From Escherichia coli (lineage in GTDB: Bacteria > Pseudomonadota > Gammaproteobacteria > Enterobacterales > Enterobacteriaceae): DNA of 64,000 nucleotides. The DNA lies in NCBI RefSeq assembly GCF_044324785.1, contig NZ_CP172127.1, one strand, 5' to 3'. Numbering within the stretch: the first letter of the stretch is position 1; the number at the start of each line of letters is the position of its first letter. Below, piece by piece: positions 2,020 to 9,969 of this stretch. A program made the translations under genes and the position numbers. A model generated the notes under the pieces. The model worked only from the letters and a program-made list of their open reading frames with translations, had not been told where the DNA came from and searched no databases.

Positions 2020-2042
2020 CAGGGCAGAAATTTCCTGCCCTG
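2020..2042 (+). terminator. Hairpin 15 nt after fruA stop (8-bp stem cagggcag/ctgccctg, 7-nt loop), weak U-tract
   Basis: Inverted repeat read directly; followed by tatcattt. Confidence 0.4.
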
Positions 2043-2159
2043 TATCATTTGAAGATCGCAAGGTGACTGACTAGTTCTTGAGGGTAACTATATGAATTTT
2101 ATGTTTTTATCTTTAAGTTGAAACCAGAAATCTCATCAAACGTTAATGTTATTTCCTCA

Positions 2160-2187
2160 AGGGCAGATTATTTTCTGCCCTTTTTTA
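2160..2187 (+). terminator. Rho-independent terminator (stem agggcaga/tctgccct followed by TTTTTT)
   Basis: GC-rich 8-bp stem plus 6-T run read directly; stem sequence nearly identical to the hairpin at 2020-2042. Confidence 0.6.
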
Positions 2188-3368: not shown

Positions 3369-4294
3369 AAATTTCCCCTGAATTATTACAAATTTCCCCA
3401 GAAGTGCAGGACGCTTTAAAAAACAAAAAACCGATCGTGGCGCTGGAATCGACCATTATTTCTCACGGGATGCCGTTCCCACAAAATGCCCAGACCGCAA
3501 TTGAAGTTGAAGAAACTATTCGTAAACAGGGCGCGGTACCTGCCACTATCGCCATTATTGGCGGCGTGATGAAAGTGGGTTTAAGCAAAGAAGAAATTGA
3601 ATTGCTGGGTCGTGAAGGGCATAACGTGACCAAAGTTAGTCGTCGCGATTTACCTTTTGTTGTTGCCGCAGGGAAAAATGGCGCAACCACCGTTGCTTCA
3701 ACGATGATTATTGCGGCGCTTGCCGGAATTAGAGTATTTGCCACCGGGGGAATTGGTGGTGTGCATCGCGGGGCGGAACATACCTTCGATATTTCTGCCG
3801 ATTTGCAAGAGCTGGCAAATACTAATGTCACCGTTGTTTGTGCCGGGGCGAAATCTATTCTCGATTTAGGATTAACCACTGAGTATTTAGAAACTTTCGG
3901 TGTACCGCTAATTGGCTATCAGACCAAAGCGCTGCCTGCGTTTTTCTGCCGTACCAGCCCGTTTGACGTCAGCATTCGTCTCGACAGCGCCAGTGAAATT
4001 GCCCGTGCAATGGCGGTGAAATGGCAAAGCGGGCTGAACGGTGGCCTCGTGGTAGCGAACCCGATCCCGGAACAGTTTGCGATGCCGGAGGAATCTATCA
4101 ATGCAGCCATAGATCAAGCCGTCGCCGAAGCCGAAGAGCAGGGCGTTATTGGTAAAGAAAGCACACCGTTCCTGCTGGCTCGTGTTGCTGAACTGACTGG
4201 CGGTGACAGCCTGAAATCCAACATCCAGCTGGTGTTCAACAACGCCATTCTGGCGAGCGAAATTGCCAAAGAATATCAGCGTCTCGCGGGTTAA
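3356..4294 (+). CDS. psuG: Pseudouridine-5'-phosphate glycosidase
   Basis: 312 aa, overlaps psuK stop by 13 nt (translational coupling); length and position as K-12 PsuG (YeiN). Confidence 0.9.
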   Translation: MSELKISPELLQISPEVQDALKNKKPIVALESTIISHGMPFPQNAQTAIEVEETIRKQGAVPATIAIIGGVMKVGLSKEEIELLGREGHNVTKVSRRDLPFVVAAGKNGATTVASTMIIAALAGIRVFATGGIGGVHRGAEHTFDISADLQELANTNVTVVCAGAKSILDLGLTTEYLETFGVPLIGYQTKALPAFFCRTSPFDVSIRLDSASEIARAMAVKWQSGLNGGLVVANPIPEQFAMPEESINAAIDQAVAEAEEQGVIGKESTPFLLARVAELTGGDSLKSNIQLVFNNAILASEIAKEYQRLAG

Positions 4295-4321
4295 TTTCTG
4301 ACGGGCAGAAAGCCGTCGCCC
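4294..4321 (+). promoter_or_regulatory. Conserved 28-nt leader element (atttctgaCgggcagaaagccgtcgccc) with 5-bp stem hairpin, upstream of psuT
   Basis: 27/28 identical to the element at 7522-7549 upstream of the paralog nupX. Confidence 0.5.
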
Positions 4322-4387
4322 GTACTCATCAAGCATACCAAAACCTGGCGCTGACGCCGGGTTTACTGGCATGAAGGGAAAATCATT

Positions 4388-5638
4388 ATGGATATAATGA
4401 GAAGTGTTGTGGGGATGGTGGTGTTACTGGCAATAGCATTTCTGTTGTCAGTGAATAAAAAGAGCATCAGTTTGCGCACGGTTGGAGCCGCACTGCTGCT
4501 GCAAATTGCCATTGGTGGCATCATGCTCTATTTTCCGCCGGGAAAATGGGCAGTAGAACAGGCGGCATTAGGCGTTCATAAAGTGATGTCTTACAGTGAT
4601 GCCGGTAGCGCCTTCATTTTTGGTTCGCTGGTCGGGCCGAAAATGGATGTCCTCTTTGACGGTGCGGGTTTTATCTTTGCCTTTCGCGTACTCCCGGCGA
4701 TTATCTTCGTCACTGCGCTCATCAGCCTGCTGTACTACATTGGCGTGATGGGGCTGCTAATCCGCATTCTTGGCAGTATTTTTCAGAAAGCCCTCAACAT
4801 CAGCAAAATCGAATCTTTTGTTGCGGTTACTACTATTTTCCTCGGGCAAAATGAGATCCCGGCGATCGTAAAACCGTTTATCGATCGCATGAATCGCAAC
4901 GAGCTATTTACGGCAATTTGTAGCGGGATGGCGTCCATTGCCGGTTCGATGATGATTGGTTATGCCGGAATGGGCGTACCAATTGACTACCTGTTAGCGG
5001 CATCGCTGATGGCGATCCCTGGTGGTATTTTGTTTGCACGTATTCTTAGCCCAGCCACCGAGCCTTCGCAGGTGACATTTGAAAATCTGTCGTTCAGCGA
5101 AACGCCGCCAAAAAGCTTTATCGAAGCAGCGGCGAGCGGTGCGATGACCGGGTTGAAAATCGCCGCTGGTGTGGCGACGGTGGTAATGGCGTTTGTCGCA
5201 ATTATTGCGCTGATCAACGGTATTATCGGCGGAATTGGCGGCTGGTTTGGTTTTGCCAATGCCTCTCTGGAAAGTATTTTTGGCTATGTGCTGGCACCGC
5301 TGGCGTGGATCATGGGTGTGGACTGGAGTGATGCCAACCTGGCGGGTAGCCTGATTGGGCAGAAACTGGCGATTAACGAATTCGTCGCTTACCTGAGTTT
5401 CTCCCCATACCTGCAAACGGGCGGCACGCTGGAAGTGAAAACCATTGCGATTATCTCCTTTGCGCTTTGTGGTTTTGCTAACTTTGGTTCTATCGGTGTT
5501 GTCGTTGGCGCATTTTCGGCTATTTCGCCAAAACGCGCACCGGAAATCGCCCAGCTTGGTTTACGGGCGCTGGCAGCTGCCACGCTTTCCAACCTGATGA
5601 GCGCGACTATTGCCGGGTTCTTTATTGGTTTAGCTTGA
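4388..5638 (+). CDS. psuT: NupC-family nucleoside (pseudouridine) transporter
   Basis: 416 aa polytopic membrane protein, about 85 percent identical by eye to the nupX product in this window; length as K-12 PsuT (YeiM). Confidence 0.9.
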   Translation: MDIMRSVVGMVVLLAIAFLLSVNKKSISLRTVGAALLLQIAIGGIMLYFPPGKWAVEQAALGVHKVMSYSDAGSAFIFGSLVGPKMDVLFDGAGFIFAFRVLPAIIFVTALISLLYYIGVMGLLIRILGSIFQKALNISKIESFVAVTTIFLGQNEIPAIVKPFIDRMNRNELFTAICSGMASIAGSMMIGYAGMGVPIDYLLAASLMAIPGGILFARILSPATEPSQVTFENLSFSETPPKSFIEAAASGAMTGLKIAAGVATVVMAFVAIIALINGIIGGIGGWFGFANASLESIFGYVLAPLAWIMGVDWSDANLAGSLIGQKLAINEFVAYLSFSPYLQTGGTLEVKTIAIISFALCGFANFGSIGVVVGAFSAISPKRAPEIAQLGLRALAAATLSNLMSATIAGFFIGLA

Positions 5639-5705
5639 GTTTCATTGCCGGAGGTACGCGCTTATTAAATGTTGCATCCGGCAATCGCGCTATTGCAAAT
5701 AATTT

Positions 5706-7521: not shown

Positions 7522-7549
7522 ATTTCTGATGGGCAGAAAGCCGTCGCCC
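7522..7549 (+). promoter_or_regulatory. Conserved 28-nt leader element (atttctgaTgggcagaaagccgtcgccc) upstream of nupX
   Basis: Near-identical copy of 4294-4321; the C-to-T change keeps the stem as a G-U pair. Confidence 0.5.
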
Positions 7550-7574
7550 AAAATGACATGAAGAGATAATAACT

Positions 7575-8838: not shown

Positions 8839-8872
8839 AGCCGGATAAGACGCGGTCAAGCGTCGAATCCGG
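8839..8872. repeat. Degenerate REP-like palindromic element between convergent nupX and yeiI
   Basis: gccggataagacgcg...gcgtcgaatccggc, resembles the E. coli REP consensus. Confidence 0.4.
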
Positions 8873-8880
8873 CAACATTG

Positions 8881-9969
8881 TTACACCATCGGCACTAATG
8901 AAAGCGCGTTTTCGGCAGACAGGGTAGGGTTGTTTAAGCTGCCGCTGGCGCGTGAAATTGCCGCGCAGGCCATCGCAAAACGGGCGCTGTCACGGAAATT
9001 GTTTCCCTCCAGAAAGCTATATACCAGGCCCGCCATAAAACCATCGTCAGCACCAAAACTGTCTACTGTCGTATGCGCTGGCGCTGTCAGCAAAAATTGT
9101 TCTCCATCCTTTTCGCTGCAATAAACTGACTCATCGGGCAAATAAACAAACAGTTGCTGAACACCTTGCTGATGCAACGTATTCACTGCGGCATTACGGT
9201 CAGCATCGCTGGTGATCGCCTGTCCCCATAAAATTTCCAGCTCCGGTAAAGTGGGTTTCAGGGTGTGAATATGCGCCAGCCAGTGTTTGATTTTGCCCGC
9301 TTTGAATTCTGAAACGGTATCGACAAACACCGGGATTTCATCAGCGAGGGTAAAGACCCACTCCAGCGCCTCGGCTGTCAGGTTGCAATCAGCAAGTACC
9401 ACGCCCGCATGACGAAGTAAATCGCGCGACCCGTTCAGTAGTTGCGGTGTCAACTGATCCAGCAGATGGGTATCGTTAATCGCCAGCACGGTTTGATCGT
9501 CTCGATTGGCAATTGCCAGATACGTCGATGTGCTTTGACCATGTAAACGAACGCAGCCGGAGACATTCACGCCGGCGCGGCGCGTTTCTTCCAGGAGCAT
9601 TTCGCCATAAAAGTCATCGCCAATCACTGAAAGCAAATGGACGTCGCGGCCTAACAGCGCCAAATTGTGGGCGATATTGCGCCCCACGCCGCCCGCCGAG
9701 CAATGAATTGTACCGGGATGAGAAGCCGCTTGCGGGTAACGGATATCCGCCATCCCGCGAATATCCATATTGATTGTCCCCACCACTACGCAGTATTCCT
9801 GCTCGGTGAGAATGTAACCTTTGCCTTTAATTCGACCTTTGCGCATTAAATCCATAATATGCGCCGCAACGCGCGAACGGCTGATTTGCAGCATATCAGC
9901 AATTTCGTTCTGCTGAATCAGCGGGTTACGCCGTAAAATTGCAAGGATCTCCTTCTCCCGGTTGTTCAT
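8881..9969 (-). CDS. yeiI: HTH-domain fused to PfkB-family (PsuK-like) sugar/nucleoside kinase
   Basis: 362 aa; N-terminal winged-helix segment (EILAILRRNPLIQQNEIADMLQISRSRVAAHI) then kinase domain with GGVGRNIAHNLA motif. Confidence 0.85.
   Translation of the reverse strand: MNNREKEILAILRRNPLIQQNEIADMLQISRSRVAAHIMDLMRKGRIKGKGYILTEQEYCVVVGTINMDIRGMADIRYPQAASHPGTIHCSAGGVGRNIAHNLALLGRDVHLLSVIGDDFYGEMLLEETRRAGVNVSGCVRLHGQSTSTYLAIANRDDQTVLAINDTHLLDQLTPQLLNGSRDLLRHAGVVLADCNLTAEALEWVFTLADEIPVFVDTVSEFKAGKIKHWLAHIHTLKPTLPELEILWGQAITSDADRNAAVNTLHQQGVQQLFVYLPDESVYCSEKDGEQFLLTAPAHTTVDSFGADDGFMAGLVYSFLEGNNFRDSARFAMACAAISRASGSLNNPTLSAENALSLVPMV

Follow-up and report, generated by a model that had tools for sequence, protein, structure and literature searches.

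Why does the spacer between fruA and psuK of Escherichia coli contain two hairpins with nearly identical stems, and is there a regulator hidden between them? The spacer lies near the start of a 64,000-nt stretch of E. coli DNA analysed here in full (the window). The first 10 kb of the window reads fruK′-fruA-psuK-psuG-psuT-(yeiL)-rihB-nupX-(yeiI) and is collinear with the 2.25–2.26 Mb region of K-12, in which these genes are on the opposite strand; overall identity with K-12 is 96.6%. Divergence from K-12 has local peaks in the 3′ part of psuG (4101–4200; 18 differences per 100 nt) and around the psuT–yeiL junction (5601–5700; 28 differences per 100 nt), over a surrounding background of 0–5 per 100 nt. 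A REP-like palindrome with weak naRNA4 matches on both strands (E about 1) is located between nupX and yeiI (8839–8887).

The stop codon of fruA (TAA, 2003–2005) is followed by a second in-frame TAA, and the spacer measures 421 nt from the end of fruA (2005) to the start of psuK (2427), with both hairpins in its first half. The features to which we refer below are the following.

314–2005, + strand: fruA (PTS fructose IIBC), with which fruBKA ends (open reading frame list, annotation of the corresponding K-12 region, RefSeq names of BLAST matches).
2019–2043, + strand: hp1, the proximal copy of the fruBKA terminator hairpin (fold, terminator scan, Escherichia-only distribution, stem conservation).
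2044–2158, + strand: AT-rich filler between the two hairpin copies (divergence, folding, similarity searches).
2092–2121, + strand: nine-codon open reading frame MNFMFLSLS in the filler, judged non-functional (from the sequence; not conserved in other Escherichia).
2159–2188, + strand: hp2, the predicted, ancestral Rho-independent terminator of fruBKA (terminator scan, fold, alignment to the single fruA terminator elsewhere).
2255–2362, + strand: psuK promoter region (motifs conserved in all genera with fruA next to psuK; element assignments read from the sequence).

Both hairpins are present at about the coordinates where a sequence-only reading had placed them (2020–2042 and 2160–2187). hp1 starts 13 nt past the fruA stop codon and consists of ACAGGGCAG-AAATTTC-CTGCCCTGT, that is, a 9-bp stem (core AGGGCAG/CTGCCCT) closed by a 7-nt loop. 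hp2 consists of AAGGGCAGA-TTATTT-TCTGCCCTT (2159–2182) followed by TTTTTTATTG; its 9-bp stem includes five GC pairs and carries a 6-nt loop, and its tail reads TTTTTTAT, with the T6 tract at 2183–2188. The folding energies, a check proposed along with the hairpins, are strong in both cases: −16.7 kcal/mol (z = −5.8) for hp1 and −15.5 kcal/mol (z = −5.1) for hp2, and no shuffled sequence folds as well as either of them. The resemblance of the stems exceeds chance expectation, as there are two matches to GGGCAG-N3-12-CTGCCC in the 64 kb where 0.02 are expected, and among the 44 perfect hairpins in the window (stem of at least 7 bp), hp1 and hp2 are the only pair within 600 nt to share a 7-mer of stem.

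The two hairpins differ in what follows the stem. Like other enterobacterial Rho-independent terminators, hp2 has a GC-rich stem, a short loop and a run of six Us on the sense strand after the last gene of an operon; its stem (at least 5 bp), loop (3–8 nt) and U-tract are those of an intrinsic terminator, its orthologous position is conserved, and it is the sole strong terminator-like site that the terminator scan returned on the + strand between 1900 and 2500. hp1 has the same stem, but the U-tract is missing: its tail, GTATCATT, contains none, the terminator scan does not call it, and it fails the standard definition of an intrinsic terminator. Termination at hp2 and read-through at hp1 are predictions; the Term-seq supplements of Adams 2021 and TERMITe, searched for transcript 3′ ends, list no entry for fruA.

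The origin of the shared stem becomes clear from the fruA loci of other Enterobacteriaceae, which we gathered from 80 species. In 40 of these 80, a single hairpin with a GGCAG stem is located 12–25 nt past the fruA stop codon, with stem arms GGGCAGAG and CTCTGCCC and a T-run (the typical form being AGGGCAGAGATTTCTCTGCCC plus the T-run); two hairpins after fruA occur in Escherichia only. Outside Escherichia, fruA is followed by psuK-psuG-psuT in 11 loci, including those of the Citrobacter amalonaticus group, C. sedlakii, Enterobacter soli, Enterobacter asburiae, Kosakonia, Klebsiella oxytoca and Klebsiella michiganensis. The spacer is some 140 nt shorter in these 11 loci, and their single hairpin aligns to hp2: the alignment of hp2 with the Citrobacter, Enterobacter, Klebsiella and Kosakonia terminator covers the 5′ flank (TTTCCTCA in C. 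sedlakii), the T-run and everything downstream. The additional 140 nt or so, found only in Escherichia, correspond to hp1 plus the 115-nt AT-rich filler, inserted just past the fruA stop codon. Given that the single hairpin elsewhere aligns to hp2 and that the extra sequence is restricted to Escherichia, the shared stem reflects homology: the terminator has been duplicated.

The direct repeat formed by hp1 and hp2 continues beyond the stems into the tails (CTGCCCTGTATCATT versus CTGCCCTTTTTTATT), as would fit a copied terminator of which the T-run decayed later, and the loop of hp1 still resembles the ancestral one (GGGCAGAAATTTC-CTGCCC versus GGGCAGAGATTTCTCTGCCC). On this comparative evidence, hp1 and hp2 are copies of one ancestral fruBKA terminator, hp2 being the ancestral one. 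The suggestion of a tandem terminator thus comes closest to the evidence, in that there are two copies of the fruBKA terminator, but with a U-tract in the distal copy only they do not amount to two working terminators. The rrnB T1 and T2 terminators, which are distinct from one another, both functional and not duplicates, likewise close an operon with two consecutive terminator-type hairpins; hp1 and hp2, unlike them, are sequence copies, of which only the second is complete.

A 9-mer of the stem, GGGCAGAAA, had also been noticed in the leaders of psuT (4303) and nupX (7531). It is indeed present there, and it occurs seven times in the window, where 0.64 occurrences are expected from dinucleotide shuffles and about one from Markov models of order 3–4. 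Two of the seven matches are in the homologous hairpins, two in the paralogous psuT and nupX leaders and three within coding regions. The leader motif of other genera consists of GGGCAG with the next three bases variable; this variability and the different structure of the leaders imply that the match between terminator and leader is coincidental, so that the recurrence results from coincidence and paralogy and does not mark an element common to hairpins and leaders.

The structure in question, at 4301–4323 (psuT) and 7530–7550 (nupX), is a leader hairpin of the form (C/U)GGGC-AGnnnGYGGUC-GCCC(G/A), the 11-nt loop of which has an invariant G, GT and G. We found it in 16 sequences from many genera, with a C–G to U–A covariation between the paralogues; a search of Rfam returned no match to it. 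An H-type pseudoknot involving this leader was considered and rejected, as its loops would be too short by geometry and its upstream arm is not conserved. The psuG–psuT spacer contains another strong hairpin, AAACCTGGCG-CTGA-CGCCGGGTTT (4341–4364), conserved across genera with a variable loop and absent from the Escherichia nupX leader.

The two-hairpin layout is not always filled by the same sequence. In E. albertii and some E. coli, a REP/BIME filler of about 150 nt takes the place of the AT-rich one between a proximal hairpin without a T-run and a distal hairpin with T5 (e.g., L093, 2607–2830; L006, 4603–4821). This allele occurs in 1,194 of 5,426 complete E. coli genomes (about 22%) and the AT-rich type in 4,219, which together account for nearly all of them. 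It is accompanied by a different C-terminal coding end of fruA and by a more palindromic psuK operator. The REP filler matches up to 11 places per genome, and we detected no similarity between it and the AT-rich filler. The space between the hairpins is thus a cassette of hypervariable sequence that can be exchanged, with the two hairpins as its fixed ends.

The window itself carries the AT-rich type. Its positions 2006–2200 are single-copy in E. coli genomes (median of one place per genome) and the K-12 annotation has no repeat feature here, so that this segment is not a member of the REP/BIME repeats. The filler folds weakly, through an imperfect hairpin closed by UUUGAUGA/UCAUCAAA; it was also considered as a strong palindrome, for which its folding is too weak (z from 0.17 to −3.4, with only −1.6 for the consensus). 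We tried two sources for it and rejected both. For a tandem duplication of the flanks, Smith–Waterman comparisons with the 3′ end of fruA and with the sequence after hp2 scored no better than shuffles; for a mobile element, there were no phage matches, and the plasmid matches proved to be mislabelled chromosomes. In some E. coli, a 48-aa “hypothetical protein” (WP_001300063.1) is annotated by RefSeq/PGAP on the minus strand over filler and hp2 (L082, 693–839, equivalent to about 2098–2244 of the window; PGAP annotation in strain EC12); the window does not contain its open reading frame, which seems spurious.

Compared with K-12, the window differs by about 25% (25–38%) in the filler and by 6% at the fourfold degenerate sites of fruA and psuK, versus 4% in hp1, 0% in hp2 with its T-run and 2.5% in the region upstream of psuK. 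In its filler, the window is nearer to the alleles of E. whittamii and Escherichia sp. E1V33 than it is in the flanks, and none of the E. coli genomes matches this filler above 85%. This pattern suggests an allele exchange, or an old polymorphism, that covers 2006–2158 and is bounded by the fruA stop codon and hp2. Amongst five Escherichia lineages, the divergence of the filler (0.11–0.38) compares with 0.12–0.29 at fourfold sites, and the filler evolves neutrally, at or above the synonymous rate.

The stems behave differently. In an alignment of seven sequences, the minimum number of changes per site is 0.65 for the filler and 0.5–0.57 for the loops, versus a single change each for the core stem of hp1 (14 columns) and the stem of hp2 (18 columns). 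Seven further E. coli add one more change in hp1, which makes 2 of the 14 core-stem columns variable over 14 Escherichia sequences. Conserved stems next to a varying filler imply purifying selection on both stems but none on the filler. In the comparative alignment of the spacer, which had been proposed as a check, both hairpin stems are conserved, but the filler and the reading frame within it are not. Four stem changes are transitions, of which three give a G·U pair on the sense strand and one (in O157) an A·C; an assignment of the strand from G·U-compatible substitutions was dropped, as 3 to 1 is not significant.

Two rearrangements of the spacer were encountered among the Escherichia loci. 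In E. coli strain 203740, an IS1 interrupts the filler (L083, 736–1433), and in Escherichia sp. MOD1-EC7003 (L002, about 4720), a deletion extends from within the filler into psuG, with the loss of hp2, the psuK promoter and psuK.

Taken together, we consider it likely that 2006–2188 is the 3′UTR of fruBKA, in which hp2 terminates transcription and insulates psuK, hp1 is a U-less copy that probably protects a 3′ end, and the filler is unconstrained. The locus has an unusual history but is otherwise a normal end of a gene, and we do not regard it as a new regulator. The fruBKA transcript would end at hp2, which would keep the transcription of the fructose operon out of psuKGT, served by a promoter of its own some 110 nt further on. 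hp1 arose within the Escherichia lineage as a second copy of the terminator and then lost its U-tract; lacking it, hp1 should be read through by RNA polymerase. The AU-rich filler could then be cut, upon which hp1 would block 3′-to-5′ exonucleases and so protect the fruA mRNA. Since its stem is under purifying selection, hp1 probably retains a function as a hairpin in the RNA, and by analogy with known systems the likeliest role is that of a stabiliser of the mRNA 3′ end; hp1 may also serve as a pause or as a structure near the stop codon.

Upstream mRNA is stabilised by 3′ stem-loops such as REP/BIME, the REP between malE and malF being an example. hp1 resembles these in that it is a stable U-less hairpin which closely follows a stop codon and precedes the true terminator, and in the alternative Escherichia allele real REP sequences lie between the two hairpins. 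hp1 differs from them in being single-copy, in having no REP consensus and in not being annotated as a REP in K-12; its stabilising role is proposed by analogy.

What lies downstream of hp2 bears on its insulating role. The region 2255–2362 is almost invariant between the window and K-12 and contains a putative CRP-like site, TGTGAGCCTGCTCAAA (TGTGA-N6-TCAAA; 2255–2270), a putative weak −35 box, TTTACT (2299–2304), a putative −10 box, TACTAT (2321–2326), and two 18-nt direct repeats with ACATGT cores (2324–2359) that could form a double operator; in other genera, the repeats correspond to a palindrome, CACATGTTT-N-AAACATGTG. An A-to-C mutation recurs in evolution experiments in the mouse gut and in long-term stationary phase (PMC7518454, PMC9509342, PMC7858067), and one of these studies places the adaptive SNP in the psuK promoter (PMC9509342). 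We find that this K-12 SNP, 2257444 in old coordinates, corresponds to position 2301 of the window and turns TTTACT into TTGACT. An adaptive mutation in the −35 box supports the notion that hp2 separates two independently regulated units.

The duplication may also be read at the level of DNA: the terminator palindrome would be a hot spot of insertion or recombination that duplicates when foreign DNA enters, and hp1 would have no function in RNA. Unrelated AT-rich and REP/BIME fillers between the same hairpin copies in different lineages agree with this, as do the IS1 insertion in one strain, the L002 deletion that starts in the filler, and the divergence of the filler from K-12 (25% versus 6% in the flanks), which suggests an allele exchange bounded by the hairpins. 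Nonetheless, the core stem of hp1 is far better conserved than the filler over a synonymous divergence of 0.2–0.3, unlike what is expected of a functionless scar; a single old duplication followed by turnover of the filler explains the data equally well; and we know of no insertion mechanism that yields duplications of about 25 bp. We therefore regard this DNA-level reading as unlikely.

Another alternative is that filler and hp2 are released from the fruBKA mRNA as a 3′UTR-derived small RNA or sponge, bound by Hfq via its U-tail and pairing with, e.g., RprA. Such Hfq-dependent RNAs include CpxQ, SdhX and MalH, with which the fruBKA 3′ end would have in common a terminator used together with the mRNA, a U-rich tail and an origin in a sugar-transport operon; it is unlike them in that the seed is not conserved, the sequence is neutral and its behaviour in E. 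coli RIL-seq is that of a target. The U6 tail of hp2 follows a U-rich stretch, so that hp2 qualifies as a long-U-tail terminator.

An Hfq-associated RNA from somewhere in this spacer does exist in K-12. In the Hfq RIL-seq data of Melamed 2016 as tabulated by Bar et al. 2021, “fruA.psuK.IGR” appears in 42 chimeric fragments in stationary phase with one partner (PMC8175672 Table S1). It takes the first position in every chimera (SIC −1), and the RIL-seq-based classifier scores it 0.001 as a small RNA (PMC8175672 Table S1). We identified the partner as RprA from the partner's own 60 interactions and SIC of 0.9697. K-12 offers two candidate sites for RprA, the psuK ribosome-binding site and an 8 + 6 bp match just 5′ of hp2, neither of which beats the shuffle null. 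The match beside hp2 speaks for a small RNA in K-12, but the window has lost it and most E. coli have only a weakened version of it (CACTAAGG), and its energy lies within the shuffle null (−20 ± 2.9); as a site of pairing with RprA it was rejected, being K-12-specific and within the null distribution. The candidate at the psuK ribosome-binding site (2402–2431), outside the hairpins, is the conserved one and the only K-12 site kept in the window. Most likely, the RIL-seq signal belongs to the 5′UTR of psuK. Directly 5′ of the psuK Shine–Dalgarno sequence, and overlapped by this candidate site, is a hairpin GGTAA-TTTT-TTACC (2401–2414), kept across genera by compensatory changes (GGCAA/TTGCC, AGCAT/ATGCT).

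Besides the target-like position in the chimeras, the single partner and the classifier score, a small RNA released from the 3′UTR is disfavoured by the absence of a conserved seed in a filler that is neutral and replaced by REP sequence in 22% of E. coli. We found no promoter-like site in the filler; a search of Rfam matched no family, the sole hit being DapZ on the opposite strand (E = 5; 21 bits versus a gathering score of 56); and a literature search for a fruA 3′UTR small RNA yielded nothing. The short transcript that had been imagined between the hairpins is thus not supported, and its release from the fruBKA mRNA seems to us distinctly improbable. A bolder combination would make the fruBKA palindrome a recurrent, self-duplicating landing site that took up AT-rich and REP sequences in separate insertions, with the U-less copy and its filler acting as a lineage-specific switch of fruA stability or processing, or as a decoy of RprA in K-12; we give it very little credence.

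The nine-codon reading frame proposed between the hairpins (MNFMFLSLS, 2092–2121) is there, as is the GAGGG upstream of it (2080–2084), although the spacing to the ATG is 7 nt and not 6. In K-12, a 1-nt indel shifts the frame to MNLNGFIFQ and GAATG replaces GAGGG; the frame is one codon shorter in some E. coli, and the Escherichia sequence L003 does not have its ATG. It is separated from hp1 by 49 nt and from hp2 by 38 nt, and overlaps neither. When the 3′ arm of hp1 is forced to pair with the 5′ arm of hp2, the fold has −47.5 kcal/mol versus −54.4 for the minimum free energy structure and encloses a 117-nt loop.

These data bear on the reading of the spacer as a leader-peptide or translation-coupled attenuator, in which translation of the short frame, or termination of the ribosome on fruA, would shift the pairing of the arms and control read-through into psuK. 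As in leader-peptide attenuators such as trpL, four segments complement one another, the last of them forming part of a terminator, and a small frame is nearby; the inverted repeats I2 and I3 would permit a 2:3 pairing, and the frame with its Shine–Dalgarno-like sequence sits between hp1 and hp2; unlike in trpL, the frame is unconserved and lies off segment 1, the antiterminator pairing is unfavourable and the element follows a gene instead of leading one. Attenuation is hardly credible, as neither the frame nor its Shine–Dalgarno sequence is conserved and no arm is overlapped, cross-pairing costs 6.9 kcal/mol relative to the local hairpins, a ribosome terminating on fruA 13 nt from hp1 would barely reach the base of hp1, the REP-filler allele has no such frame, and related genera with fruA next to psuK regulate the same promoter without the insert. 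The attenuator proposal is, in consequence, largely refuted.

With the duplicated fruBKA terminator as the preferred reading, the fruA–psuK spacer can be annotated as one working terminator (predicted), a degenerate duplicate of it and junk filler, followed by the psuK promoter. Adaptive mutations in the mouse gut are known to cluster at this promoter, and the insulation ascribed to hp2 helps to interpret them. The dimorphic filler between conserved hairpins offers a small, clean example of how a 3′UTR can be rebuilt while its structural ends are kept, and the spacer is a natural test case for whether a terminator copy that has lost its Us may protect the 3′ end of an mRNA.
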